Shown here: in pieces, positions 1 through 40,527 of the stretch
Position numbering within the stretch: the stretch's first letter is position 1
Layout of the letters: every line of letters begins with the position of its first letter
From: Bacillota bacterium
Lineage (GTDB): Bacteria; Patescibacteriota; Patescibacteriia; Patescibacteriales; UBA12465
Assembly: GCA_050259635.1 (NCBI GenBank)
Contig: JBLNBA010000004.1
Span: forward strand, 267,005 to 331,004
Direction: 5' to 3'
DNA: 64,000 bases
Made by a program: the position numbers and the translations under genes
Notes under the pieces: model-generated
What the model saw: the letters and a program-made list of their open reading frames with translations, nothing else
Databases searched by the model: none
What the model was told of the DNA's origin: nothing

Positions 1-488
1 CCCATACGGCCACCCATGCGAGTGCCTTTGAAAATGTGGGCCGGGCCTTTAGCGCCTACGGAACCCGGCATACGGAGCTGGTCCTTATTGCCGTGGCTCT
101 TACGTCCACCTTGGAAATGATGGCGCTTGACTACGCCCTGGAAACCGCGACCCTTGGAAGTACCGGTAACATCGATGACATCTCCAGCGGAAAAAGTCGC
201 CACACTGATCTGGTCGCCGACATTAGCACTTGAATCAGATTCGGTGCGGAATTCGCGGACATGCATCGGCGCAACCCCGGCTTTTTTGAAATGCCCGAGC
301 TGGGGCTTCTTGATATTCTTTTCTTTGCGGACGCCAAAAGCGAGCTGCAACGCGGAATATTTATCAGTAGCAACAGTCTTCACCTGGGTGATGACGCAAG
401 GACCGGCCTGAACCGGAGTGACAGCCGAAACCTTATCATTCTCCCAAATCTGGGTCATCGGCAATTTTTTTCCTAAAATGAATTTCAT
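1..488 (-). CDS. rplC: 50S ribosomal protein L3 (N-terminal part; gene runs off the left edge)
   Basis: Not in the ORF track because there is no stop in the window. Reverse complement from the ATG at 488 reads MKFILGKKLPMTQIWENDKVSAVTPVQAGPCVITQVKTVATDK..., an L3 N-terminus. It lies downstream of rpsJ, as in S10 operons. Confidence 0.9.
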   Translation of the reverse strand, partial: MKFILGKKLPMTQIWENDKVSAVTPVQAGPCVITQVKTVATDKYSALQLAFGVRKEKNIKKPQLGHFKKAGVAPMHVREFRTESDSSANVGDQISVATFSAGDVIDVTGTSKGRGFQGVVKRHHFQGGRKSHGNKDQLRMPGSVGAKGPAHIFKGTRMGGRM

Positions 489-494
489 ATGTGT

Positions 495-527
495 TTTAAA
501 ACAAAAAACTGGTAGATATTACCAGCT
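495..527 (-). terminator. Intrinsic-terminator-like hairpin about 20 nt upstream of the rplC start (possible attenuator)
   Basis: On the minus strand: ctggta-atatc-taccag (6-bp stem at 509-525) followed by ttttttgtttt. It lies inside the 213-nt rpsJ-rplC spacer. Confidence 0.5.
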
Positions 528-701
528 TTAAAAACAAAAGCGAAAAATTGCGCACCTATGGCTTCCAATTTTCTAAATTTTGTTTTCTTGCTGCTTTCTC
601 CTTTGCCACCTGCTCACCGATAAGCATTTTCTATACTAACATTAGCATAGAGTTACCTAGCAGTTCCTAAGCGGCCCTTAACCTTGATATTTGATTTTAT
701 A

Positions 702-1040
702 TTACTGCATTTTTATCTCTACGTCAACCCCAGCCGGAAGGTTCAGGTTGGTGAGATCCTCAATAGTCTTGCTGCTCGGATCAATGATATCGATAATGCG
801 CTTATGGATGCGCATTTCATACTGGTCACGAGCATCCTTATGCACGAAAGTAGAGCGGTTAACCGTGTACTTGTGCTTTTCCGTTGGAAGCGGAATCGGA
901 CCGAAAAAACTGGCATCACTGCGTTCAATCGTGTCGACGATAGTCTTCGTTGACTGGTCAATAATCTTGTGATCAAAGGCCTTGATCTTAATACGGATTC
1001 TCTGTTTGTAATCCTTTTCCTCTTTCTTGGGTTCAGACAT
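702..1040 (-). CDS. rpsJ: 30S ribosomal protein S10
   Basis: 112 aa. [23 protein letters not shown]...GPIPLPT...[24 protein letters not shown] is canonical S10. It follows tuf. Confidence 0.97.
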
Positions 1041-1094
1041 AGAAGAATGTACTTTTTATGTTTCTAATTTAGTTTTATATAAATAAACACTATC

Positions 1095-1121
1095 AGCCTG
1101 CCCTGCTAGGCAGAGCAGGCT
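1095..1121 (-). terminator. GC-rich hairpin just after the tuf stop (partial terminator or processing site)
   Basis: agcctgc-c-ctgc-tag-gcag-a-gcaggct: 7+4 bp with one mismatch. There is no strong U-run, so termination efficiency is uncertain. Confidence 0.35.
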
Positions 1122-1132
1122 CAAGTGTCTAT

Positions 1133-2320
1133 TTATTTGATGATCTTAACGACGGTACCGGCACCGACAGTGCGTCCGCCTTCGCGGATAGCAAAGCGTT
1201 GCTTTTCTTCCAAAGCGACCGGAGCGATCAGCTTAACAGTGATCGTAACGGTATCGCCAGGCATAACCATCTCGGTTCCGGCCGGCAATTCAACTTCACC
1301 CGTGACATCAGTCGTACGGATATAGAACTGCGGCTTATAGCCCTTGAAGAAAGGCTTATGGCGTCCGCCTTCTTCCTTCGAAAGCACATAGATCTGAGCT
1401 TCGAATTCAGTATGAGGGGTAACGCTGCCCGGTTTGCAGAGAACCTGTCCGCGTTCAACTTCGTTCTTCTTGGTACCGCGGAGCAAGAGTCCGGCATTGT
1501 CGCCGGCCTGACCCTGGTCAAGAGACTTATTGAACATTTCGACACCGGTGATAGTAGTCTTCTTGGTATCCATCAAACCGACGATTTCAACTTCGTCTCC
1601 AACCTTGATGATACCGCGATCGATGCGGCCGGTAACGACAGTTCCGCGGCCTTCAATGGAAAAGATATCTTCGATCGGCATCAGGAAGGGGTGGTCGGTA
1701 TCGCGCGGCGGTTCCGGGATATATTCATCGAGCTGCTTCATGAGTTCCATGATCGGCTCAGCATCCGGACCATTCGGGTTTTCGAGAGCTTTCAAAGCGC
1801 TGCCGCGGATAATCGGGGTGGTGTCACCCGGGAATTCATACTTCTTGAGCAGATCGCGGATTTCCTCTTCGACAAGGTCGATGAGTTCCTTATCCTCAAC
1901 CATATCGCACTTGTTAAGGAAAACGACGATATAAGGCACACCTACCTGCTTAGCAAGCACGATGTGTTCGCGGGTCTGCGGCATAGGGCCGTCAGTAGCG
2001 GATACCACAAGGATAGCGCCATCCATCTGAGCGGCGCCGGTGATCATGTTCTTAACATAATCGGCGTGACCCGGACAATCAACGTGAGCATAGTGGCGGC
2101 TAGCGGATTCATATTCCACGTGTGCAGTCGCGATGGTAATACCGCGTTCGCGTTCTTCAGGGGCGGCATCGATTTCACTGACGCCTTTCTTCGAGGCGCT
2201 CATGCCATGGGCGCCGAATACCGCGAGCATCGCGGCGGTCAAAGTGGTCTTCCCGTGGTCGACGTGGCCGATGGTGCCGACGTTGACATGGGGCTTGTTG
2301 CGTTCGAATTTTTCTGCCAT
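1133..2320 (-). CDS. tuf: Elongation factor Tu
   Basis: 395 aa. [18 protein letters not shown] and NKCD GTPase motifs, with full-length EF-Tu similarity. Confidence 0.99.
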
Positions 2321-2399
2321 GTTATTGTGCTTACGGCCCCCGAATGGGGTTTCTTTCCTAAGAGGAAACCAGCCGTGAAATTAATTAATATTTAAATTT

Positions 2400-2741
2400 T
2401 TACTTATCGCTTTCCGCTTTTCCCTTTACTTGCGGGGGGATGTTCCAGTTCTTCCGCTGTTTGCTTTCTTCCGCCAAATATTCGGCATTTTCTTCGTTTT
2501 TCCAGGCTGAGATTTCGCGATTTATTTTATCAGCAATATCGCCTTCTGTCAAACTTGGCTTATATACTGCATCTTTTTTATCTAATATCTCATCAGAAAT
2601 CAATTCTTCATAGCGGTCAAGATCAACGATAGCGAACGAGTCTTCGGGAGCCTCAGCATCAAAGAAGATGACGGGGTTATTTGTTTTTCTAGCTAATCTT
2701 AAAGCTTTTTTTAATTGTTCGCGCATAAGGGTTAGCGCCAT
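2400..2741 (-). CDS. Hypothetical small protein; N-terminal half resembles the Phd/YefM antitoxin fold, C-terminal half is a charged tail
   Basis: 113 aa, wedged between fusA and tuf. The pattern ...LARKTNNPVIFFDAEAPEDSFAIVDLDRYEELI resembles YefM/Phd N-domains by eye. No toxin partner is adjacent. Confidence 0.55.
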   Translation of the reverse strand: MALTLMREQLKKALRLARKTNNPVIFFDAEAPEDSFAIVDLDRYEELISDEILDKKDAVYKPSLTEGDIADKINREISAWKNEENAEYLAEESKQRKNWNIPPQVKGKAESDK

Positions 2742-2753
2742 CCTCCGGTGGCC

Positions 2754-4835
2754 TTATTTAGCTCCTTTCTCCTTGATTGTTTCCAGAACATTGCGGGGTA
2801 CTTCACTATAATGGGAAAATTCCATGGTGTAATTTGCCCTGCCCTGAGACATTGAGCGTAGAGAAGTGGCATAGCCGAACATTTCTGCTAAGGGGACTTT
2901 GGCCTTAATGGCCTTGATCTTGTTCGGCCGGTCAATCATTTCCTCGATCTGTCCGCGCTTAGAGTTTAAGTCGCCAATGATATTGCCCATGTAATCTTCA
3001 GGGGTGGTAACCTCCACTTTCATGATCGGCTCAAGCAGGATCGGTTTGGCCTTTTGGCAAGCATCCTTGAAAGCAAAGATACCGGCCATCTTAAAGGCGA
3101 TTTCCGAGGAGTCGACTTCATGGTAAGAACCGTAGAAGACAGCCACTTTGACGTCGACCATCGGGAAACCCGCGACGACGCCGGAAAGCATGCCTTCCTT
3201 AACACCCTTTTCGATCGCCGGAATATATTCCTTCGGGATGACGCCGCCCTTAACTTCGTCAACAAACTCATAGCCCTTACCTTCGCCCGCCGGTTCGACG
3301 CGCAACTGGCAGTGCCCATATTGTCCGCGTCCGCCGGACTGCTTGATATACTTATGCTCGGCTTCGGCGGTCTGAGTAATGGTCTCGCGATATGATACCT
3401 GCGGCTTGCCGACGTTAGCTTCTACTCCGAACTCCCTCTTCATGCGGTCGACGATAATATCAAGGTGCAATTCGCCCATACCGGAGATGAGAACCTGATT
3501 GGTTTCTTCATCGGTCTCGACACGGAAAGTCGGGTCTTCTTCAGCCAAGCGCTGCAAGGCGACACCCATCTTCTCCTGGTCGGCTTTGGTCTTCGGTTCA
3601 ACAGCGATCTTGATCACCGGTTCCGGGAAGACGATCGACTCGAGTAGGACCGGCTTATTCTCATCACAGAGAGTATTGCCGGTAGTAGTATTCTTTAATC
3701 CGATTACCGCAGCAATGTCGCCGGCGTATATCTCTTTAATCTCTTCACGATGATTGGCGTGCATGCGGACCAAGCGGCCGATGCGTTCCTTGTTACCGGT
3801 AGATGCGTTGACGATATATGAACCGGACTGCAGAACGCCCTGATACACGCGGACGAAGCAGAGCTTGCCCACGAAAGGATCGGTTGCGATCTTGAAAGCG
3901 AGGCCAACGAAGGGAGCGTTATCATCTGCCTTGATCGGAGCTTTCTTCTCCGGGTCATTCACATCGGAAGATTCTATTTCCGGAACATCTAAAGGAGAGG
4001 GCAAATAATCATTTACGGCATCAAGGGCGAACTGGACGCCGATATTCTGTAAAGCCGTACCGCAGAGCACGGGATATATCGCATTAGTGATAACTCCTTT
4101 GCGGATCGCATTCTTGAGCTCTTCAACAGAGATTTCCTCGCCACCCAGATATTTCTCCATGGTCGTCTCGTCGCACTCAACCGAGCGCTCTACGAGTTCG
4201 GAGCGGAATTTCTCCACCTTTTCTTTCATATCGGCCGGGATCTCGATTTCAGTAATATTCTCACCAAAGTTACCGGCAAAGGTATAAGCTTTGCGATCAA
4301 GCAGGTCGATGACGCCGCTTAAATTATCTTCGGCGCCGATCGGCAGCTGGACAGCAACCGCTTTCGGGCTAAGGCGCTGCTTGATAGAATCAAGGCTCAT
4401 GAAGAAATCAGCACCCATCTTGTCCATCTTATTCACGAAGCAAAGACGCGGAACGTTATACTTGTCCGCCTGGCGCCAAACGGTCTCAGACTGCGGCTCA
4501 ACGCCGGCCTGTCCGTCGAAAACGGCGATAGCGCCATCAAGGACGCGCAAAGAGCGCTCCACCTCAACGGTGAAGTCAACGTGCCCAGGAGTATCGATGA
4601 TATTGATCTTATTGCCCTTCCAGAAACAAGTCGTAGCCGCAGAAGTGATGGTAATGCCTCTTTCCTTTTCCTGTTCCATCCAATCCATTTCCGCAGCCCC
4701 TTCATGAACTTCCCCAATCTTGTGCTTTTTACCGGTATAAAAAAGGACGCGCTCGGTAAAAGTGGTCTTACCGGCATCGATGTGGGCCATGATACCGATA
4801 TTTCTGATCTTATCTAAAGAATAATCACGGGGCAT
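2754..4835 (-). CDS. fusA: Elongation factor G
   Basis: 693 aa. [17 protein letters not shown] and NKMD motifs, with full EF-G domain order. Confidence 0.99.
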
Positions 4836-4872
4836 AATTCATTGATAAATATAATAAAATTGATATTCCAGC

Positions 4873-5340
4873 TTATCTTGAGAAGTGGGCGAAGGCCTTG
4901 TTGGCTTCGGCCATCTTATGAACGGCTTCCCTCTTCTTGACGGCTGCGCCTTCGCCATTGGAGGCGTCAAGCACTTCCGCAGCGAGCTTCTCCGCCATAG
5001 AGTGTCCGCGGCGGGTATGTGCGGCAGTAATCATCCAGTGGCAACCGAGATAGAAACGGCGTTCGCCACGGACCTGGAACGGAACCTGGTAGTTCGCACC
5101 GCCAACGCGCTTACCGCGAACTTCGACGAGCGGAGAAACCTTTTTCATCGCCTTGTTGAAGACATGGCGAGGATCCTGCTTGGTTTTATCCTTGATGATA
5201 TTGAAAGAGCCATAGACGATACGCTCGGCCGTGCTCTTCTTACCGTCCTGCATCACATAATTGATGAGTTTGGTAATACTTTTGTCGTTGTATTTGCTAT
5301 CCCCGGCAATATCTCTCTTAGGGGCTTGTTTTCCTCTCAT
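4873..5340 (-). CDS. rpsG: 30S ribosomal protein S7
   Basis: 155 aa. Typical S7 sequence (...VEVRGKRVGGANYQVPFQV...) in str-operon position. Confidence 0.98.
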   Translation of the reverse strand: MRGKQAPKRDIAGDSKYNDKSITKLINYVMQDGKKSTAERIVYGSFNIIKDKTKQDPRHVFNKAMKKVSPLVEVRGKRVGGANYQVPFQVRGERRFYLGCHWMITAAHTRRGHSMAEKLAAEVLDASNGEGAAVKKREAVHKMAEANKAFAHFSR

Positions 5341-5421
5341 AAATCTTTATAGGCGGGCCGCCGCCAGCTATAATGGCGTCCGCTTGTTATATATCGGAGG
5401 CTGGCTCCGGAAAATTATATG

Positions 5422-5844
5422 TTATTTGCTTTTCGGTCTCTTAGCGCCGTAGCAGCTGCGGCCCTGACGGCGAGCTTCCACTCCAACCGCATCGTATACG
5501 CCGCGGACAACCTTATAGCGGACACCCGGAAGATCCTTAGTCTTTCCTCCCTTTACCAAGACGATAGAGTGTTCCTGAAGATTGTGGCCCATGCCAGGGA
5601 TATAAGCGGTAACTTCCATGCCGTTAGACAGACGGACGCGGGCGATCTTTCGGAGCGCGGAGTTCGGCTTCTTCGGAGTGGTAGTCGTCACCTTGACGCA
5701 AACACCCTGCTTAAAAGGCGCGCCCTTGGCATTGACGTTCTTCTGGCGATGCAGCGAGTCAAGGCTGGTGTGCAAAGCCAAAGAAGACTGACGCTGGCTC
5801 TTCGATTTTCTGCCCTTGCGGACCAATTGGTTGATAGTCGGCAT
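5422..5844 (-). CDS. rpsL: 30S ribosomal protein S12
   Basis: 140 aa. [12 protein letters not shown]...[10 protein letters not shown]... is canonical S12. Confidence 0.98.
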
Positions 5845-5940
5845 AATGCTTTCACGGTTCGGTTGTAAACCGGATAAAAAAAATTTAGTGCGATGATAAC
5901 AAAATATCCTGACCCATCAGGATAGAGTTATTACCCGATC

Positions 5941-8898: not shown

Positions 8899-10014
8899 TC
8901 AGGCCCGATCCCGTTGCCATTTCAGATAAGCAGCAATGAAGCCCTCCAGCGCTCCGTCCATGACGACATCGACGTTAGTATCTTCATGCTCGCTCCGATG
9001 GTCTTTTACCAAGCGGTTACCATAGAACCAATAAGACCGGATCTGCTGACCCCATTCCGCTTTCACGACTCCGCCCTTCAATTTCCGCTCTTCTTCTTCC
9101 TTCTTCTCAAGTTCTAATTGTGCCAGCTTGGAACGCAGGATCGAAAAAGCATTCTCCTTATTCTGGTGCTGGGACCTTTCCGTCTGGGCGCTTACCGTGA
9201 TCCCCGTTGGGATATGCACCAGGCGGACGGCGGAATCGGTCGTATTCACACTCTGCCCTCCCGGTCCGCTGGAGCGGAATACATCCAGGCGTATATCTTC
9301 ATCCTTAATCACGATCTCGGTCGCCTGGATTTCCGGAATTACCTCGACCGAGGCGAAAGAGGTCTGGCGCAAGCCATCCGCATTGAAAGGCGAATTGCGC
9401 AGCAAGCGATGGGCACCATTCTCGCTCTTCAGGTTCCCATAGGCTCTATACCCCGCAATCTTCATCATCACGCTCTTTATGCCCGCTTCATTACCAGGTA
9501 AACGGTCTATAATCTCCGCCTTCCAGTTCTGCCTTTCAGTAAAGCGCAGATACATGCGCTCGAGCATCTGAGCCCAATCCTGGGCATCGATACCGCCCGT
9601 GCCCGCATTGATAGTCAGGATGGCATCATGGTCGTCATATTTCCCGGTAAAAAGCGAAGCGGCCTCCAGATGGTCCAAATCCCTCTCCCATTGCTCCGCC
9701 TTCTTGGATAATTCCTTTGCCATCGCAGCGTCTTCTTCCTCTAAAGCGAGCGGCGCAATATCCAGGGCATCTTTTAGCGCCCTTTCCAAGATTAGCCATT
9801 GCTCCCTTTCCTTCTGCAATCCCTCAAGCCTTCTGCTAACCACTACTGCTTTTTCCTGGTCTGACCAGAAGTCCGGTCTTTCCATCTCTTTGCGCAAGGT
9901 AGCTATCTCTTCGTCATTTGCCCCGATACCCAAATCGGCTGCCAGGCGTGCTCGGCGCGCCTCGAGTTCTTCTAATGACTTCAGTAATGTCTCCTCGTTG
10001 AATCGGCTATCCAT
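8899..10014 (-). CDS. prfB: Peptide chain release factor 2
   Basis: 371 aa. SPF tripeptide (RNSPFNA) and GGQ (SGPGGQSVN) are present. The ORF is continuous, so no +1 frameshift site is needed. Confidence 0.95.
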   Translation of the reverse strand: MDSRFNEETLLKSLEELEARRARLAADLGIGANDEEIATLRKEMERPDFWSDQEKAVVVSRRLEGLQKEREQWLILERALKDALDIAPLALEEEDAAMAKELSKKAEQWERDLDHLEAASLFTGKYDDHDAILTINAGTGGIDAQDWAQMLERMYLRFTERQNWKAEIIDRLPGNEAGIKSVMMKIAGYRAYGNLKSENGAHRLLRNSPFNADGLRQTSFASVEVIPEIQATEIVIKDEDIRLDVFRSSGPGGQSVNTTDSAVRLVHIPTGITVSAQTERSQHQNKENAFSILRSKLAQLELEKKEEEERKLKGGVVKAEWGQQIRSYWFYGNRLVKDHRSEHEDTNVDVVMDGALEGFIAAYLKWQRDRA

Positions 10015-10042
10015 AGATGATTGTTATGATTAAATACTATAA

Positions 10043-10080
10043 TAAAAAAACATCCCCGTAAACAGGGATGTTTTCTTTTT
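10043..10080 (-). terminator. Intrinsic terminator after rpsI (bidirectional shape)
   Basis: acatccc-cgtaaaca-gggatgt (7 bp), flanked by aaaaaaa and ttttcttttt. On the minus strand it is followed by tttttttatt. Confidence 0.75.
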
Positions 10081-10087
10081 GGTAAGA

Positions 10088-10576
10088 TTAACGTTTGCTC
10101 CACTGCGGGCGCTTTCTGGCGCCTTTGAAACCCGGTTTCTTTCTTTCTTTCTTTCTCGGGTCGCGAGTGAGGAAGCCATTTAGCTTTAAAGCTTCTTTAA
10201 GCAGCGGATCCAACTGTAAGAGCCCGCGCGCGATGCCGTGGCGGCAAGCTTCGATCTGTCCGGTCACGCCTCCGCCCTTAACAATGATGGAAAAATTAAA
10301 ATCGCGGACATGGCCGGTCACCTTCAGCGGTTGGCTGACAATATTAATGCCTTCTCCTGGAAAATACAACGTCCCTTTCTTGCCGTTGATCATGATTGCT
10401 CCCTTGCCATCCTGATAAAGACGGACCTGAGCAACAGAAGTCTTACGGCGGCCGACGGATTTGAGATAGGTGCCGTTGAATTCGACGTGATCCGGCATCG
10501 GCGCCTCCTTGGCTTCAAGTTCCGGAGCGACGACAGCCACTTTCTTCTCTTTCACGGTTTTCTGTTTGGTTTCCAT
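10088..10576 (-). CDS. rpsI: 30S ribosomal protein S9 (with an N-terminal extension of about 30 aa)
   Basis: 162 aa. ...GRRKTSVAQVRL...GGGVTGQIEACRHGIARGL...DPRKKERKKPGFKGARKRPQWSKR is canonical S9. Confidence 0.95.
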   Translation of the reverse strand: METKQKTVKEKKVAVVAPELEAKEAPMPDHVEFNGTYLKSVGRRKTSVAQVRLYQDGKGAIMINGKKGTLYFPGEGINIVSQPLKVTGHVRDFNFSIIVKGGGVTGQIEACRHGIARGLLQLDPLLKEALKLNGFLTRDPRKKERKKPGFKGARKRPQWSKR

Positions 10577-10582
10577 ATGTGG

Positions 10583-10939
10583 TTATCTAATGATTAAACG
10601 CTTCATCTGGGCATCGCGAAGCTTGGTCGGTGGCAGCATCTGCTTAACCGCGCGGCGCAAAACTTCTCCCGGATCCTTGGCGAAGACTTCAGACATCCTT
10701 CTAGTCTTTAAACCGCCGACAAAACCGGTAAAGCTGAAATACTTCTTCTGAAGCAGTTTCTTGCCACTGAAAGACATCTTACCGACATTCTCGACTTCAA
10801 CGATGTCGCCATTGTCGATATAAGCTTCGAATTCGGGCTTATTCTTCCCGCGCAACAAGATTGCGATCTGGCTCGCCAAACGTCCAGCAGCCTGGTCCGT
10901 TGCATCGAGCTTATGGATTTTCCTTTGGATAGTGTTCAT
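10583..10939 (-). CDS. rplM: 50S ribosomal protein L13
   Basis: Start moved to ATG 10939 (MNTIQRKIHKLDATDQAAGRLASQIAILLRGK...). The longer track ORF would overlap rplQ by 130 nt. Confidence 0.93.
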   Translation of the reverse strand: MNTIQRKIHKLDATDQAAGRLASQIAILLRGKNKPEFEAYIDNGDIVEVENVGKMSFSGKKLLQKKYFSFTGFVGGLKTRRMSEVFAKDPGEVLRRAVKQMLPPTKLRDAQMKRLIIR

Positions 10940-10958
10940 ATATTCTGTGCGCGTGAAA

Positions 10959-11309
10959 TTATACGAGTTCGATTTGCACCATCTCGGCGCCGTCTCCTTG
11001 GCGCGGACCGAGCTTAGTCGTGCGGGTATAGCCGCCGTTACGGTCCTGATAGCGCTTGCCCAAAACTTCCATCGCCTTCTTGACGGCATTCTTCTGGAGC
11101 AAGACCTTTATCAAGCCACGGCGAGCATTGAGATCTCCGACCTTAGCCGAAGTGATCATCCGCTCGACGAGGGGGCGGACAGCTTGCGCTTTCGCCTTGG
11201 TGGTTTTAACTTTTTCGTAAATCAGGATGCTCGAAGCCAGATTGCGGAGCATCAGCTCGCGCGGCCCTTTCTCCCGGTCTAAGATTTTATTCGCGTTTCT
11301 GTGGCGCAT
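10959..11309 (-). CDS. rplQ: 50S ribosomal protein L17
   Basis: 116 aa. MRHRNANKILDREKGPRELMLRNLASSILIYEKVKTT... is canonical L17. Confidence 0.95.
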   Translation of the reverse strand: MRHRNANKILDREKGPRELMLRNLASSILIYEKVKTTKAKAQAVRPLVERMITSAKVGDLNARRGLIKVLLQKNAVKKAMEVLGKRYQDRNGGYTRTTKLGPRQGDGAEMVQIELV

Positions 11310-11333
11310 ATGTGTTAATTATGAGGAAGCGGC

Positions 11334-12140
11334 TTATTTCTTGCTTTTCTTCTTGGCCGGCTTTTCAACCTCTTCGGCAGGAAGCTCCGCTTCTTCTTCG
11401 GTATTTAAATCCGCTTCATCGGTCTCTTCTTCGGAAGCCGGGGCAGGCTCCTCAGTACGAGGCAGAAGCGCGCTGAACTGGTCAACTAGAATTTGGGCAG
11501 CCTGGTTAAAGGCTTCCATCGGACTAAGCGTACCATCGGTCTTCATGGTGATGAGCAGCTTGTCCCAATTGGTCATCTTACCGACACGGGTATTCTCAAC
11601 ATCCAGCTGGACGGAAAGTACGGGAGAAAAGATAGAATCAATCTCGATATAACCGAGCTCGTTATTTTCCCTCTTTACGCCTTCACTCATGCGGTATCCA
11701 CGTCCGGAATGGGCAGAGATTTCTACTTCGAGGCTAGCCTTTTCTTCGGTCAAGGTGGCAATCACGAGTTCGGGATTCTTAATTTCAACATTGGCATCCT
11801 TAGCGATATCGGCAGCGGTCACAACCTTCTTGCCTTTAACCTTAAGCTCGAGGCGAACCTCTTCATCTCCATGGATTTTCATCCGGATCTGCTTAATGTT
11901 AAGCATTATTTCCAAAACGTCTTCCTGGATGCCAGGCAAAGTCATGAATTCATGGCTCGCGCCCTTGATCTTGGCGCCGACCACGGCCGCGCCAGGCAAA
12001 GAGGAAAGCAGCACGCGACGCAAGGAATTACCAAGAGTCATGCCGTAACCGGGATACAAAGGTTCCACGACCACAACTCCTTCATTGGCGCCCTTACCGG
12101 CGAGGAAATCTACTTTTTTGGGCAAAGCGATATTTTCCAT
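11334..12140 (-). CDS. rpoA: DNA-directed RNA polymerase alpha subunit, N-terminal domain only plus a low-complexity tail
   Basis: 268 aa. The alpha-NTD is recognisable (LGNSLRRVLLSSLPGAAV...). The last ~46 aa are acidic then KKKSKK, with no helix-hairpin-helix CTD motif. Confidence 0.93.
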   Translation of the reverse strand: MENIALPKKVDFLAGKGANEGVVVVEPLYPGYGMTLGNSLRRVLLSSLPGAAVVGAKIKGASHEFMTLPGIQEDVLEIMLNIKQIRMKIHGDEEVRLELKVKGKKVVTAADIAKDANVEIKNPELVIATLTEEKASLEVEISAHSGRGYRMSEGVKRENNELGYIEIDSIFSPVLSVQLDVENTRVGKMTNWDKLLITMKTDGTLSPMEAFNQAAQILVDQFSALLPRTEEPAPASEEETDEADLNTEEEAELPAEEVEKPAKKKSKK

Positions 12141-12190
12141 AAGAGATGAAAGCCTCCGGCTCCCGCCAAAACGGGACGCCGAACGACCGA

Positions 12191-12826
12191 TTATTTAGAA
12201 TAATACTCGATGATCATCTGCACGTTCACGTTCACCGGCAATTCAGTATCAGCCGGCTCATGCAGGACCTTGCCTTTCAAGTTGGCGGCGTCGAGATTCA
12301 ACCAGCCGGGCAATTCGGATTTCTTCTTTAAAGACTCGCTAATCTGCTTGAAATAAGCATTCTTGCGGCTACCGGAGCGAACGGAGATTTCCTGTCCTTC
12401 TTTAACGACAAAGGACGGGATATCGGTCTTTACGCCATTAACATCAAAGTGGCCGTGGTTAATCAACTGTCTAGCCTGAGAACGGGAGGTCGCAAAACCT
12501 AGATGATAGACGGCGCTATCAAGACGCAATTCAAGTAAACGGATAAAGTTCTTTCCGGCATCGCCCTGCTTGGCTGAAGCCTTTTCGAAAGTGAGACGGA
12601 ACTGCTTCTCCATCATCTGATAATATTTCTTCAGCTTCTGCTTCTCAGTGAGCTGGGTTCCGTAATCGCTCAGCTTCCGGCGTCCGCGGCTCGGACCATG
12701 GAAACCCGGAGGAAAATTCCTCTTCACGATTCCGCACTTTGAAGTATTGCAACGCTCACCCTTGAGGAAAAGCTTTTCCCCGGCGCGGCGGCACTGTGTG
12801 CATTTGCTATCTAGATTTCTTCCCAT
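12191..12826 (-). CDS. rpsD: 30S ribosomal protein S4
   Basis: 211 aa. N-terminal Cys cluster (CTQCRR...CNTSKC), a YGTQLTEKQKLK segment and an S4 domain. Confidence 0.96.
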   Translation of the reverse strand: MGRNLDSKCTQCRRAGEKLFLKGERCNTSKCGIVKRNFPPGFHGPSRGRRKLSDYGTQLTEKQKLKKYYQMMEKQFRLTFEKASAKQGDAGKNFIRLLELRLDSAVYHLGFATSRSQARQLINHGHFDVNGVKTDIPSFVVKEGQEISVRSGSRKNAYFKQISESLKKKSELPGWLNLDAANLKGKVLHEPADTELPVNVNVQMIIEYYSK

Positions 12827-12849
12827 ATTGGTTCTTGATCGATTAATTA

Positions 12850-13449
12850 TTACACTCTGCGCGGCTTCTTAGGGCGGCAGCCGTTATGCGGAACGGGAGT
12901 AGTATCCTTGATCGCGGCAACCTCGAGACCATTGGCGTTCAAGGCTCGGATAGCAGCTTCGCGGCCAGTTCCCACACCGGAGACAAACACACTCACTTCT
13001 TGCAAGCCGTATTCTTCCTTGGCCTTCTGCGCAGCAATCTTAGTGATGATCTGAGCGGCATAAGGAGTGGCCTTTTTGGCGCCCTTAAAACCGGCCATAC
13101 CGGCGCTAGCCCAAGAGATAACATCGCCATTGCCGTCAGTAAGGGTCACCATGGTGTTGTTATAAGTGGCGCTGATATAGGCGCGTCCGACCTTTACGGT
13201 CCGGGCAGCGCGCTTCTTGCGCTTCTTCACCAATTTCTTCTTGGCACGAGCCTGCTTATTCTTTTCAAGCTTCTGCTTGATTTCTTCCGGAAGCTCATCG
13301 TCGGCAGCGGAGTCGAGAGAAAACGGCGCATCGCCGGCTTCGTCATCGTCGGCATCTTCAGCCGGAACGGAAGGAGCGGCTTTCGGTTCCTCCACCGCAA
13401 CAGCCTGCTTCTCTTCTTCTTCGGAATTTAAATTCTTTTCATCGGACAT
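12850..13449 (-). CDS. rpsK: 30S ribosomal protein S11 with an acidic/lysine N-terminal extension of about 70 aa
   Basis: 199 aa. The C-terminal ~125 aa are canonical S11 ([18 protein letters not shown]...[14 protein letters not shown]...). The N-terminus is low complexity. Confidence 0.95.
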
Positions 13450-13484
13450 AAATGGAATGAGATAAATTTATGGAAGCAGCCGGA

Positions 13485-13877
13485 TTAGGTCTTCTGAGCG
13501 GACTTAGCGCGCCCGCTGGAAGCGGTCATACGCTTATTGCCACGAACAGTGCGGCTGTTGGTCTTCGTGCGCTGGCCGCGAACCGGCAAATTGCGGCTGT
13601 GGCGCAGGCCGCGATAGCAGCCGATTTCCTTCAAGCGCTTGATATTACTCGCAACTTCGCGGCGCAGATCTCCTTCGACGGTATTCTTCTTCTCGATCTG
13701 TTCGCGGAGGCGGTTAGCTTCTTCCTCTTTAAGGTCTTTGACTTTGGTTTCAGGATTGATCTTCACCTCGGAAAGGATCTTCTTCGCCTTGCTCAACCCG
13801 ATACCGTAGATATAGGTGAGGGATACGTCGACTCTCTTTTCGTTGGGGATGCTCACGCCTGCGATTCTAATAGCCAT
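13485..13877 (-). CDS. rpsM: 30S ribosomal protein S13
   Basis: 130 aa. [27 protein letters not shown]... is canonical S13. Confidence 0.96.
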
Positions 13878-13919
13878 AATGATAAATCAGGCGGCCTTCC
13901 GGCCGTTCCTTACTCTTAA

Positions 13920-14033
13920 TTATCCTTGTCTTTGCTTATGCTTAGGGTTCTTGCAAATCACGTACACGCGGCCTTTGCGGCGGACAGTCTTGCAATCCTT
14001 GCAGATTTTTTTCGCACTCGCTCGTACTTTCAT
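13920..14033 (-). CDS. rpmJ: 50S ribosomal protein L36
   Basis: Too short for the ORF track. The reverse complement reads [37 protein letters not shown] (37 aa), canonical L36, in the expected infA-rpmJ-rpsM position. Confidence 0.9.
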
Positions 14034-14077
14034 AGTGTGGGTGAATATTTATAAAGGGGGTTAAATCCAAATTTAGG

Positions 14078-14335
14078 TCAGAGGCGGAATACGATCCGGC
14101 CTTTGGTCAGATCATAAGGGCTCATCTGTAAGCGAACTCGATCTCCTGGAAGAAGACGGATGCGGTTCATCCTCATCTTCCCGGCAAGATGAGCCAAGAT
14201 CTCATGCCCGCTGTCCAAACGGACGCGGAAAGTCGCGGCAGGCAAAAGCTCCAGGACCTCGCCTTGCATTTCTAAAAAATCTTTGGCATTCAAAGTTTCG
14301 GCGGATTCCTGGGAATTGTTCTTTCCTTTTGACAT
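14078..14335 (-). CDS. infA: Translation initiation factor IF-1
   Basis: S1-like core: ...[64 protein letters not shown]. The start is ambiguous: ATG 14335 is chosen, and the track uses 14365. Confidence 0.85.
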
Positions 14336-14428
14336 TAACACAAAAAAATTTGATAAAGACATCATTGAGCCTTATCAAAATTTTTAGAAATATTCCAGTT
14401 TAATCTTGTTTTCACTCTCAATGGCAAT

Positions 14429-14457
14429 AGTATATAGACAGGCGCTTAAATTGTCAA
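14429..14457 (-). promoter_or_regulatory. Candidate sigma70-type promoter of the infA-rpmJ-rpsM-rpsK-rpsD-rpoA-rplQ operon
   Basis: Minus strand: TTGACA (14457-14452), 17 nt, TATACT (14434-14429), in the alaS-infA spacer. Confidence 0.65.
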
Positions 14458-31849: not shown

Positions 31850-32884
31850 TTATTTAGTTGCGAGGATGCTACGCTTGTAAGAATCGAGATTGTCCAAAGC
31901 GATACCTGTGCCCTTAGCGACGCAAAGCAAGGCATCATCGGCGATATAAGCAGGTACGCCAGTAGTTCGAGCTACGAGCTGGTCGATATTCCTAAGCAAG
32001 GCGCTTCCGCCGGAAAGGATGATCCCCTTATCCATGATATCAGCCGCGAGCTCGGGAGGGGTCTTCTGTAGAACGCGTTTGGCGGCGGCAATAATAGCCT
32101 CAAGCTCATTCTGGATAGCCTCGGTAACATCATCACTTGAAACCGTGATGCTTCTCGGCAGGCCGGTAACTATGTCTCGCCCGCGGATTTCCATGTAAAG
32201 CTTGTCTTCGACGTATAAAGCCGAGCCGATGTTTATCTTTATCTCCTCAGCTGTGCGCTCGCCGATGGCTAAATTATATTTCTTACGGATATGCTCTAAA
32301 ATAGCGGCATCAAACTTATTGCCCCCGACGCGCACCGAAGTAGAGGCGACGATACCGCCCAAAGAAATCACTGCCATCTCGGCGGTTCCGCCGCCGATAT
32401 CGATTATCATGTGGCCCGTGGCCGAGCCGATCGGGATATCCGCCCCGATGGCAGCGGCTACCGGTTCTTTGATGATATAAGCGGCCTTAGCCCCGGCTGC
32501 GATTGTCGCCTCGATTACCGCGCGGCGCTCAGTAGAGGAAATGCCGGCAGGAACGGCCACCATCACTTCCGGACGGAAAAGGCGGATCCCGCCTAAAGTC
32601 TTATTGATAAAATACCTGATCATCGCTTCAGTCGTCCGGTAGTCTGCGATGACTCCATCCTTAAGGGGACGGGCGGCGACAATGGTGTCCGGAGTGCGTC
32701 CTAGCATATCCTTGGCTTCGTTACCGACCGCCAATATCTTATTGTCATCGAGGGATACGGCAACCACCGAAGGCTCGTTAATCACGATGCCCCGGCGAGG
32801 TAGATAGACTAAAGTATAGGTTGTGCCCAGGTCGATGCCAATGCGTTTTATAAACATAATTTGGCTGAAATCAAATAAAAACAA
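31850..32884 (-). CDS. MreB-family actin-like protein (second paralog)
   Basis: 344 aa. IGIDLGTTYT...NEPSVVA...DIGGGTAE motifs. The true start may be ATG 32857 (MFIKRIGIDLGT). Confidence 0.9.
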   Translation of the reverse strand: MFLFDFSQIMFIKRIGIDLGTTYTLVYLPRRGIVINEPSVVAVSLDDNKILAVGNEAKDMLGRTPDTIVAARPLKDGVIADYRTTEAMIRYFINKTLGGIRLFRPEVMVAVPAGISSTERRAVIEATIAAGAKAAYIIKEPVAAAIGADIPIGSATGHMIIDIGGGTAEMAVISLGGIVASTSVRVGGNKFDAAILEHIRKKYNLAIGERTAEEIKINIGSALYVEDKLYMEIRGRDIVTGLPRSITVSSDDVTEAIQNELEAIIAAAKRVLQKTPPELAADIMDKGIILSGGSALLRNIDQLVARTTGVPAYIADDALLCVAKGTGIALDNLDSYKRSILATK

Positions 32885-32961: not shown

Positions 32962-33390
32962 TTATTCTCCGTAAGTATCCTCGCTGTCTTCTTCTTCCTC
33001 CCGCTTCTGGTTCTCGATAATCTTTTTCACTTTCTCGGCAAACTCGAAGGTATCAAATTCATCCTTGATGAAATAATAATCGGCTCCGAGCTCCAAACTG
33101 CGGTTCTTGCTATCCTCATCGCTAAGGTCGGTGAAGATAAAAATCGGGGTTTCGCCTAAATCCGCGTCTTCTTTGATCCGCTTGATCACATCGAAGCCAT
33201 CGATCTTAGGCATGATTAGGTCGAGGATGATGTAATCCGGCTCAAACGAGCGGATATTGTCCATTAATTCCTCGATCGGCTCTTCTCCTTCGCTCGGTTC
33301 AACGATAAAATCGTCGGAATCGAACTGGGCTTCCAGCCCGTAAAGGATGTTTACGTCATCTTCGAGGATGAAGATCTTTTTCTCTGCCAT
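32962..33390 (-). CDS. Stand-alone response-regulator receiver (CheY-like) with an acidic tail
   Basis: 142 aa. EDD acidic pocket, phospho-acceptor context IILDLIMPKIDG, conserved T (FIFTD) and K (YFIKD). It has no output domain, and there is no kinase in the window. Confidence 0.85.
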   Translation of the reverse strand: MAEKKIFILEDDVNILYGLEAQFDSDDFIVEPSEGEEPIEELMDNIRSFEPDYIILDLIMPKIDGFDVIKRIKEDADLGETPIFIFTDLSDEDSKNRSLELGADYYFIKDEFDTFEFAEKVKKIIENQKREEEEDSEDTYGE

Positions 33391-37605: not shown

Positions 37606-38649
37606 TTATTCGGTTGATACATTGCCGAGGGTCACCTTGGCTAAAAGTTCAGGATCGCTAATCAGAATACCGGCTCCCCGAACGACGCAAGTCAAAGGAT
37701 CATCGACAATCTTCACGGGGATCTTCGCCGCCATGGAAATGGCCTGGTTTAACCCGCGTAAAAGCGCGCCGCCGCCGGAAAGATAGATGCCGCGCTCATA
37801 AATATCCGCGACTAATTCCGGTGGCGTTGTCTCAAGGATAGTCTTGATATTCTCGATAATCTTGGCTACTGTCCGGCCGATCGCTTCTCTGATCTGCTTA
37901 TCATTCACCATGATCGCTTTCGGAAGGCCGTTAATCAGGTCGCGTCCGCGAACCTCCATCTCCATCGTCTCTCCGCTCGTAATCGCTGATCCGATACTGA
38001 TCTTTATCTCTTCAGCCAGCTGTTCGCCGATGAGGATATTGAACTCTTCCCTGATGTATTCGATGATATTGCTATCAAATTCGTTACCCGCCAGACGCAA
38101 GGATTTCCAGGTCACTACCCCTCCCAGCGAAATTACTGCGATCTCGGTGCTGCCGCCGCCGATATCGACGATCATGGTGGCCGTCGCTTCCGTAACCGGG
38201 AGGCGCGCTCCTACCGCCGATGCCATCGCTTCTTCAACTAGGTATACTTTTCGCGCACCGGCAGACTTCGCCGCATCCTCCACAGCTTTCTTCTCAACCT
38301 CGGTCAGATCTAAGGGTATGCCAATGACGACCCGAGGACGAGGAATCAAGACGAAATGCTCATGGTGGGCTTTAGTAATGAAATATTTAAGCATCTTCTC
38401 GGTTACTTCGAAATCCGAAATTACGCCGTCCACCAAAGGCTTAATCGTCTCAATATGGGCCGGCGTCTTACCCACCATTTTTTTGGCCGCGGCCCCCACT
38501 TCCAAAATCTCATTAGTGCGCTTATTTATCGCCACCACCGAAGGTTCGTTGATCACAAGTCCCTTTTCGGCCATAACAACCAGGGTATTCTTCGTACCAA
38601 GATCGATTCCAAGGTCGTGGCTAAATCTGCCAAGAAGTTTATTGAACAT
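37606..38649 (-). CDS. mreB: Rod shape-determining protein MreB
   Basis: 347 aa. LGIDLGTKNT...NEPSVVA...DIGGGSTE. It heads mreC and mreD. Confidence 0.95.
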   Translation of the reverse strand: MFNKLLGRFSHDLGIDLGTKNTLVVMAEKGLVINEPSVVAINKRTNEILEVGAAAKKMVGKTPAHIETIKPLVDGVISDFEVTEKMLKYFITKAHHEHFVLIPRPRVVIGIPLDLTEVEKKAVEDAAKSAGARKVYLVEEAMASAVGARLPVTEATATMIVDIGGGSTEIAVISLGGVVTWKSLRLAGNEFDSNIIEYIREEFNILIGEQLAEEIKISIGSAITSGETMEMEVRGRDLINGLPKAIMVNDKQIREAIGRTVAKIIENIKTILETTPPELVADIYERGIYLSGGGALLRGLNQAISMAAKIPVKIVDDPLTCVVRGAGILISDPELLAKVTLGNVSTE

Positions 38650-39878: not shown

Positions 39879-40463
39879 TCATTTCTTTCTCATCAAACGC
39901 AAAGCCGCCTTGACCCTCTCGGCGCTGCCCTCTACTTCTCGCCCCACTTCTCCCAACGCCACCTTGGCGTCGCCGAGCGAATAACCGAGCGACATCATGG
40001 CATCCAGCTCGTCCCCGTATGAAGATGAAGGCTGTCCCGGCAAGGCAATGCCTCCGGCAGACAAACGGGCGATCTTCCCTTTGAGCTCGAGCACGATCCT
40101 CTCCGCTGTCTTTTTCCCGATTCCGGATACTTTCGTGAGCAATGACGCATCACCCCTCATGACTGCTTCCCGGACATCGTCCGCGGTAGCTAGCGACAAG
40201 ACTCCCAGAGCGGATTTAGGGCCCACGCCCGATACCGAAAGCAAGAGATTGAAGAGCTCCAGGTCATCCAGATTACGAAAGCCGTAAAGATCGGAAGCAT
40301 CCTCCCTCACTTGATGGGAAAGGTATAATTCTATGGTTTCTCCGGATTTACAACTAGATAACAAAGACTCGCCGGCAAAGACCTGATAGCCGACGTTATC
40401 CACTTCTAATATTAAATAATTATTAGCTTTCGCTAAAATCTGGCCGCGCAGGAATGCGAGCAT
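39879..40463 (-). CDS. ruvA: Holliday junction branch migration complex subunit RuvA
   Basis: 194 aa. MLAFLRGQI..., with two HhH motifs (VSGVGPKSA, VSGIGKKTAERI). Confidence 0.93.
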   Translation of the reverse strand: MLAFLRGQILAKANNYLILEVDNVGYQVFAGESLLSSCKSGETIELYLSHQVREDASDLYGFRNLDDLELFNLLLSVSGVGPKSALGVLSLATADDVREAVMRGDASLLTKVSGIGKKTAERIVLELKGKIARLSAGGIALPGQPSSSYGDELDAMMSLGYSLGDAKVALGEVGREVEGSAERVKAALRLMRKK

Positions 40464-40527
40464 ATATCCCTAGTATAGTATATCCTTTAATATATTTGAA
40501 TCTTGACGGAAAGGCCTTCCTTAGGCG

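Follow-up and report, generated by a model that had tools for sequence, protein, structure and literature searches.

What does a bacterial RNA polymerase (RNAP) use in place of the C-terminal domain (CTD) of its alpha subunit when that domain is gone? The alpha-CTD is treated as universal in bacterial RNAP, where it reads UP elements, offers class I activators their principal place to dock and, by a recent account, speeds DNA capture by one to two orders of magnitude. The question is raised by the rpoA gene in a 64,000-nt stretch of contig JBLNBA010000004.1 (hereafter the window, meaning the whole stretch analysed), in which the folded helix-hairpin-helix alpha-CTD is missing from the open reading frame (ORF) and a short charged tail follows the N-terminal domain. 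This tail is predicted to be disordered, and its design, an acidic stretch followed by a basic tip, is conserved among relatives while its sequence drifts. Our preferred reading, to which we give a probability of roughly one half, is that a disordered tether with a DNA-contacting basic tip has replaced the CTD and that activator docking has been lost. The parts of the locus on which the argument depends are these:

11334..12140, minus strand: rpoA coding sequence, 268 aa plus stop (ORF list, Pfam, TIGR02027, match to a solved structure)
11463..12140, minus strand: alpha N-terminal domain, residues 1-226, the dimerisation and beta/beta' assembly platform (Pfam, conservation, AlphaFold2)
11364..11459, minus strand: acidic tail segment, residues 228-259, RTEEPAPASEEETDEADLNTEEEAELPAEEVE (composition conserved; pLDDT <50)
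11337..11363, minus strand: lysine-rich tip, residues 260-268, KPAKKKSKK, the positional counterpart of the AT-hook KPAKKKRGRPKK in sister lineages
10959..11309, minus strand: rplQ (L17), starting 24 nt past the rpoA stop

The window encodes a housekeeping alpha subunit without a CTD

The window protein passes the RpoA equivalog threshold of TIGR02027 (264.8 bits against a cutoff of 227.8), and Pfam assigns to it PF01193 (residues 26-222, 1.8e-20), PF01000 (residues 57-172, 1.3e-31) and no other family. This agrees with an earlier annotation made from the DNA letters (the sequence-only reading), in which the first ~222 residues were taken for a normal alpha N-terminal domain. The NCBIfam rpoA models, which are 298-344 positions long, aligned over just their first ~241-259 positions, and the NF0035xx rpoA sub-models all scored under their own cutoffs because the C-terminal third of each was unmatched. 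The best relative of solved structure is the B. subtilis alpha subunit (6wvj_A, 9.5e-62), the alignment to which stops in the inter-domain linker; a further solved alpha subunit matched over the N-terminal domain at 1e-51. As nearest relatives we took the 120 best-scoring clusters from a 5.8-billion-cluster protein database, among which 51 columns of the N-terminal domain are invariant. AlphaFold2, given a 120-sequence alignment, modelled this domain with pLDDT values mostly of 76-94 and the expected order of strands and helices, residues 148-163 being of low confidence. The position of the gene (rpsM-rpsK-rpsD-rpoA-rplQ) is common to the window, to related loci labelled with Pfam and to E. 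coli. The window gene is the housekeeping RNAP alpha subunit of a Falkowbacteria-type Patescibacterium. The NCBI record of a protein identical to it (P0001) says 'Bacillota bacterium', whereas named close relatives are Patescibacteria or Falkowbacteria, and the label is probably a taxonomic error attached to a metagenome-assembled genome.

The Pfam model of the alpha-CTD, PF03118, was not found in this protein even at E<=10, although the same test returned it at 2.8e-13 for a Patescibacteria relative (P0135). We also built two alpha-CTD profile hidden Markov models (HMMs), a small one and one of 90 sequences, and ran them with --max, the rpoA locus of E. coli serving as positive control. Both recovered the control (3e-32 and 2e-22). 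In the window and 80 related loci, searched in six frames, the best match other than the control had an E-value of only 0.77. Within the window the best match to these models (E 3.5-5.6) was a RuvA-like ORF at 39882-40469, and a RuvA-like protein is expected to share the helix-hairpin-helix motif. When a profile of the tail or of the full-length protein was compared by hhalign with the 90-sequence CTD profile, the probability of a match was 0.1-0.4%. The Pfam search, the two custom models and hhalign together rule out a hidden or degenerate CTD within the tail, and they bear out the claim of the sequence-only reading that this RpoA has no CTD.

The same reading had held that no split CTD gene follows, and this too stands on the ORF list and the sequence. 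The protein ends in ...DQFSALLPRTEEPAPASEEETDEADLNTEEEAELPAEEVEKPAKKKSKK and its gene in a TAA codon; there is no split CTD gene next to rpoA, because the ATG of rplQ begins 24 nt after that stop, and a downstream CTD gene is likewise ruled out by the 2-61 nt that separate the two genes in 80 genomes.

The acid-then-basic tail is conserved across the clade

Residues 227-268 of the window protein include 15 D/E and 7 K/R in 42 residues, with six lysines within the last nine (KPAKKKSKK), so that the acidic-then-lysine tail described in the sequence-only reading does occupy the place of the CTD. In the AlphaFold2 model residues 231-268 have pLDDT values <50 and no secondary structure, and the tail is accordingly predicted to be disordered.

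All 120 of the nearest clusters are 244-286 aa long and carry PF01000 and PF01193 only, and those with names are Patescibacteria or Falkowbacteria. A survey in which each GTDB species was represented by a single genome yielded 278 relatives, and in the best 80 of these loci, which come from many unrelated projects, rpoA encodes 249-297 aa with a similar tail and, likewise, no CTD, and rplQ follows at the short distances given above. After the conserved ...DQFSALLP that ends at residue 227, tails are 21-57 aa long (median 46.5) and have a median D/E content of ~31%; across the 120 clusters and 80 genomes the composition of the acidic stretch is kept and its sequence is not. The end is more uniform. 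Among the 120 clusters the last 12 residues contain a median of 7 K/R, nearly all sequences finish in -KK, and K264 and K268 are each conserved at >=90%.

A comparably charged terminus occurs in only 2 of the other ~65 ORFs of the window. A genome-wide habit of charged tails was therefore rejected as an explanation (3 of ~66 window ORFs have a D/E/K-rich terminus), the rarity of such termini among the window proteins indicating that the tail of RpoA does not reflect a general compositional habit.

In sister lineages the tail ends in an AT-hook

Four CTD-less alpha subunits that are mutually 46-48% identical all end in an invariant KRGRPKK, preceded by an acidic linker that is not conserved. 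The 13-residue AT_hook model of Pfam is the family that matches this end, yet it does so below its cutoff (E 0.09-0.15). A profile built from these four proteins (clusters P0122, P0134, P0159 and P0170) retrieved 120 clusters of 244-330 aa, all without a CTD and with labels that include Patescibacteria, Falkowbacteria, Komeilibacteria and Parcubacteria. In 116 of them the acidic linker is followed by a [KR]G[RK]P[KR] end, and the remaining 4 have lysine-rich or near-hook ends (KKRGRSKKK, KPAKKKAKKS, KKGKAKKS and SKKSKK). The gene for the hook-type protein occupies the same operon slot, with rplQ next to it in each of loci L082-L085.

Hook-type and window-type proteins thus have in common the loss of the CTD, the acidic linker, the operon context, N-terminal domains that are up to 63% identical, and a …EKPAKKK… motif before the tip. 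They differ in the tip itself, which is an invariant KRGRPKK in the one and KKKSKK, with no G-R-P core, in the window lineage; the AT-hook core [KR]G[KR]P[KR] is absent from the window RpoA and from the rest of the window ORFs. Some hook tails end in ...DKPAKKKRGRPKK where the window protein has ...EKPAKKKSKK, which fits a replacement of the RGRP core in the window lineage. The window tail looks like a hook-less, lysine-rich derivative of a module made of an acidic linker and an AT-hook. Judging from these alignments, and going beyond the sequence-only reading, the tail appears to be not a mere remnant but part of a conserved module of acidic linker and basic tip that ends in an AT-hook in sister lineages.

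To see how widely the CTD has been lost, we ran a full HMMER search against 1.84 billion representatives clustered at 50% identity, which gave 8902 matches. Among the best 150 of these, which we classified, 90 have a CTD (about 300-345 aa) and ~40 lack it and have charged tails of low complexity, the rest being fragments or garbled predictions. Proteins without the CTD carry Patescibacteria or Parcubacteria labels, and the CTD is retained in the named Patescibacteria P0133, P0135 and P0139. A set of 80 metagenome loci comprised 38 CTD-bearing, 32 lysine-rich CTD-less and 6 AT-hook forms. Loss of the CTD is lineage-specific within Patescibacteria, and secondary, since other members of the group keep PF03118.

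In a neighbour-joining distance tree of N-terminal domains, which is crude and carries no support values, 120 window-type clusters form one contiguous block adjoining a block of ~100 hook-type clusters, with CTD-bearing Patescibacteria at a greater distance. In this tree the nearest hook protein is 63% identical to the window type and the nearest CTD-bearing protein 50%. Several lysine-rich CTD-less forms that branch in isolation among CTD-bearing proteins may reflect further losses or be noise. We propose tentatively, as something short of an even bet, that a large Patescibacteria clade swapped the CTD for an HMGA-like acidic spacer plus AT-hook, and that this arrangement later degenerated to a lysine patch in the Falkowbacteria lineage of the window.

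A tethered tip as a possible substitute for the CTD

In the mechanism that we favour, an ancestor would have lost the folded helix-hairpin-helix CTD, and a disordered tail of ~40 residues, in which an acidic spacer leads to a short basic tip, would have taken over. In sister lineages the tip would be a canonical AT-hook, KKRGRPKK, and in the window lineage the RGRP core would have given way to the lysine patch KPAKKKSKK. The alpha N-terminal domain would assemble the core enzyme as usual, and the two tails of each enzyme would act as flexible tethers whose basic tips touch DNA upstream of the promoter. With a hook this contact would be in the minor groove and biased towards A/T, and in the window version it would be mainly electrostatic. 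The generic role of the alpha-CTD in DNA capture and upstream contact might thereby be retained. As in HMGA-type proteins, non-specific binding may be damped by the acidic spacer, which probably also holds the tail in an extended state. With the docking surface for class I activators gone, activation via the alpha-CTD could not operate, and the different activation logic that the sequence-only reading drew from the absence of the CTD is plausible. In keeping with this, a survey reports that full CRP/FNR-type regulators are conspicuously missing from the Candidate Phyla Radiation (CPR) (PMC12531629).

Two precedents make a tether plausible. In Myxococcus the RNAP-binding protein CarD has an intrinsically unfolded region in which RGRP AT-hooks come after an acidic segment, and this region binds the A/T-rich minor groove upstream of a promoter. 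In E. coli tethered alpha-CTDs speed the association of RNAP with DNA about 10- and 55-fold, an acceleration that the authors attribute to a generic property of small DNA-binding modules when they are flexibly tethered (bioRxiv 10.64898/2026.07.21.739884).

Several observations on the protein and on the DNA weigh against this reading. DNA binding by the tip of the window protein, suggested by analogy with the hooks, has to reckon with a tail that is without the G-R-P core by which an AT-hook is defined. A basic tip is not universal either, since a few CTD-less relatives (e.g. P0153 and P0157) have purely acidic tails, and the tree that places window-type next to hook-type proteins is the crude one described above. 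On the DNA side, the relevant feature is the following:

14429..14457, minus strand: promoter-like TTGACA-17-TATACT upstream of infA (consensus scan, 11/12; a consensus match, not a mapped start)

This site is likely to be the promoter of the alpha-operon cluster, as judged from its sequence, and homologous near-consensus sites recur in related loci. It is without a TG extension and has no obvious A/T-rich element upstream. We profiled A/T content upstream of 76 strong promoter-like sites of the window type (from the window and 80 related loci), 35 of other lysine-rich types, 2 of the hook type and 31 from CTD-bearing controls. Just upstream of the 76 window-type sites there was no clear rise in A/T (0.626 compared with 0.605 at more distant upstream positions, p=0.14), and no class, the CTD-bearing controls included, showed a significant UP-like A/T enrichment upstream of the -35 element. 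Because the controls also gave no signal, the test is uninformative and of low power. The 76 sites also bear on the strong -35 and extended -10 promoters reported in the sequence-only reading. Near-consensus -35 and -10 hexamers are indeed present, 27 of the 76 matching the consensus at 12/12, but the extended -10 finds no support, TG preceding the -10 element at just 4 of the 76 sites and not at infA.

Two individual upstream regions may be recorded here. In the hook-type locus L082 (7130..7210) the infA promoter, TTGACA-17-TATAAT, is preceded by long A- and T-tracts (agaaaaatttgttaaaaattttgatttatttttgca) that resemble an UP element, a single anecdote. The Komeilibacteria locus L084 has no such A/T tract upstream of its infA promoter.

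The alternative that survives best, though we consider it unlikely, is simple reductive loss, in which a streamlined genome with few activators and near-consensus core promoters dispensed with the CTD and the tail is the functionless remnant of an expanded linker. Igarashi and Ishihama are said to have found in 1991 that E. coli RNAP with an alpha subunit cut after the N-terminal domain assembles and carries out factor-independent transcription in vitro. The genome is of a reduced type, the frequency of full-consensus sites among those detected and the missing A/T enrichment fit such a loss, and the acidic part of the tail is not conserved in sequence. The reported lack of CRP/FNR-type regulators in CPR (PMC12531629) would fit such a loss as well. 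Neutral remnants, however, are expected to decay or to be trimmed under deletion bias, whereas the length of this tail, its acid-then-basic order and its terminal motif have been kept in hundreds of clusters, even where identity falls to ~45%. Amid diverged surroundings the KRGRPKK tip does not vary, and the rarity of such tails in neighbouring proteins also argues against a functionless remnant.

It is rather less probable that the tail serves chiefly as a polyanionic nucleic-acid mimic or electrostatic regulator, comparable to delta or to sigma region 1.1, which would limit non-specific binding to DNA or RNA and aid recycling, with the lysine tip bent back onto the acidic stretch. That about one third of the tail residues are D/E, that the net charge is negative, that composition is conserved and disorder predicted, and that some relatives have purely acidic tails would all suit such a role. 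Conservation is strongest, however, not in the acidic part but in the basic tip or AT-hook, which is a motif for binding DNA, and the alpha N-terminal domain has its C-terminus on the upstream side of RNAP rather than near the main channel. Polyanionic regulation could be a second function of the acidic part.

A CTD function supplied in trans, by a separate alpha-CTD-like protein encoded elsewhere or by another DNA-binding factor for which the tail is a docking peptide, strikes us as improbable. The CTD scans covered the window and ~1.8 Mb of rpoA-flanking DNA from relatives, which leaves such a protein some room, but no CTD-like ORF appeared in six frames of the window and the 80 loci and no gene lies between rpoA and rplQ in any of the 80 genomes; we know of no precedent for a free alpha-CTD. 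Finally, a frameshift, premature stop or misassembly that cut short a normal rpoA, the possibility that the sequence-only reading had left open, is refuted and practically out of the question, as the identical protein is in an independent public NCBI entry on a 351,747 bp contig, the same shortened architecture is shared by the 120 clusters and by 80 species-level genomes from unrelated projects, and just 24 nt separate the rpoA stop from rplQ.

Gene neighbourhood and other features of the window

The genes upstream of rpoA provide the standard context of an alpha operon, with the following coordinates:

12191..14365, minus strand: alpha-operon genes upstream of rpoA, namely infA, (rpmJ), rpsM, rpsK and rpsD
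14078..14365, minus strand: infA (ORF translation)
13485..13877, minus strand: rpsM (ORF translation)
12850..13449, minus strand: rpsK (ORF translation)
12191..12826, minus strand: rpsD (ORF translation)

On the minus strand the full order is alaS, infA, rpsM, rpsK, rpsD, rpoA, rplQ, rplM, rpsI and prfB. The wider gene order is unusual (1..5900 and 8899..14365, minus strand). The alpha operon (infA...rplQ-rplM-rpsI-prfB) lies upstream of, and on the same strand as, a cluster of rpsL-rpsG-fusA-(113 aa ORF)-tuf-rpsJ-rplC, in which the 113 aa ORF between fusA and tuf is at 2400..2741. ORFs for membrane proteins stand between the alpha operon and the rpsL cluster, and rpoB and rpoC do not precede rpsL in the window, these identities being taken from translations alone.

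Two ribosomal proteins of the operon are extended. S11, encoded by rpsK, has 199 aa compared with 129 aa in E. coli, owing to an N-terminal extension of ~70-85 aa that is acidic and then K/R-rich. In 75 related Falkowbacteria-type loci this extension contains a well-conserved motif and has a median length of 81 aa; it is absent from the Komeilibacteria relative L084 (133 aa), and the protein is shorter in L082 (178 aa). S9, encoded by rpsI (10088..10576, minus strand; 162 aa), has an apparent N-terminal extension of ~30 aa that is rich in K and E (METKQKTVKEKKVAVVAPELEAKEAPMPD...).

Elsewhere, two MreB/actin-like paralogues lie within 6 kb of each other on the minus strand (31850..32884 and 37606..38649), both with an N-terminal ...GIDLGT...VINEPSV as read from the translations. 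A receiver-domain-like protein of 142 aa (32962..33390, minus strand; MAEKKIFILEDD...) has the strongly acidic C-terminus …KREEEEDSED and no obvious DNA-binding output domain, and it is one of only three window ORFs with a highly charged terminus. Scans for tRNA genes, tmRNA and Rfam families at the gathering threshold found none in the 64 kb window.

Significance and comparison with known systems

A bona fide RpoA whose CTD is replaced by an HMGA-like or lysine-rich disordered tail is apparently undescribed. We found no paper on CTD-less RpoA, or on AT-hooks on RNAP, in CPR, Patescibacteria or Parcubacteria in a full-text search outside which most subscription journals lie, and a recent review of Patescibacteria does not mention RNAP. 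If the tether reading is true, upstream DNA would be read through a minor-groove hook or an electrostatic tether, class I (alpha-CTD-dependent) activation would be impossible, and these lineages would be a natural experiment on what the alpha-CTD is needed for and a direct test of which of its functions are indispensable. Loss of the CTD is also a possible explanation of the sparse regulator repertoires of these ultra-small bacteria. On the practical side, the finding could guide the design of promoters and expression tools for Patescibacteria, which according to reviews are still missing, and it calls for caution with quality filters and annotation models that rely on rpoA length or on the CTD, given that several NCBIfam sub-models fall below their cutoffs through the absence of this domain.

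In its N-terminal domain, TIGR02027 score and operon position the window protein is like canonical RpoA, as in B. subtilis (6wvj_A) and E. coli. It differs in that the surface for UP elements and activators provided by PF03118 is replaced by a 42-residue disordered tail, acidic and then lysine-rich. Alpha-like assembly subunits that naturally lack an alpha-CTD are found in archaea (Rpo3/D) and eukaryotes (Rpb3/AC40), and the window RpoA does match archaeal subunit D weakly (NF001988, 3e-07). Its bacterial type is nevertheless clear from 264.8 bits to TIGR02027, compared with 30 for subunit D, and its gene belongs to a bacterial ribosomal operon.

The delta subunit (RpoE) of Gram-positive bacteria such as B. 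subtilis is attached to RNAP and has a disordered, strongly acidic tail with a lysine tract. Unlike the tail of the window protein, delta forms a subunit of its own, has a HARE-HTH fold and carries its charged blocks in another order; Pfam did not find the HARE-HTH family PF05066 in the window RpoA, and the likeness is limited to a charged disordered tail.

Eukaryotic HMGA proteins, which are disordered, carry both AT-hooks and an acidic stretch and attach to A/T-rich DNA in its minor groove (PMC4482583). The contextual feature of these proteins, a disordered tail with an adjacent acidic segment, is present in the window protein (pLDDT <50; 15 D/E in 42 residues). In HMGA, however, three hooks come first and the acidic tail follows, and the proteins are free architectural factors rather than polymerase subunits.

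A parallel in design is CarD of M. xanthus, which is also associated with RNAP and also has an intrinsically unfolded acidic segment followed by a basic AT-hook region. In other myxobacteria histone-H1-like lysine-rich regions are the equivalents of the CarD hooks, a substitution for AT-hooks that is known only for CarD (PMC4374960). Such histone-H1-like segments are basic, disordered and rich in Lys, Ala and Pro; the tip of the window protein is rich in K, A, P and S but only 9 residues long. CarD differs in being an accessory factor that is held on the beta subunit by a Tudor-like domain and carries four hooks in ~140 residues, whereas alpha subunits of the window type and the hook type have a single tip on the core subunit itself and share no homology with CarD outside the motif.

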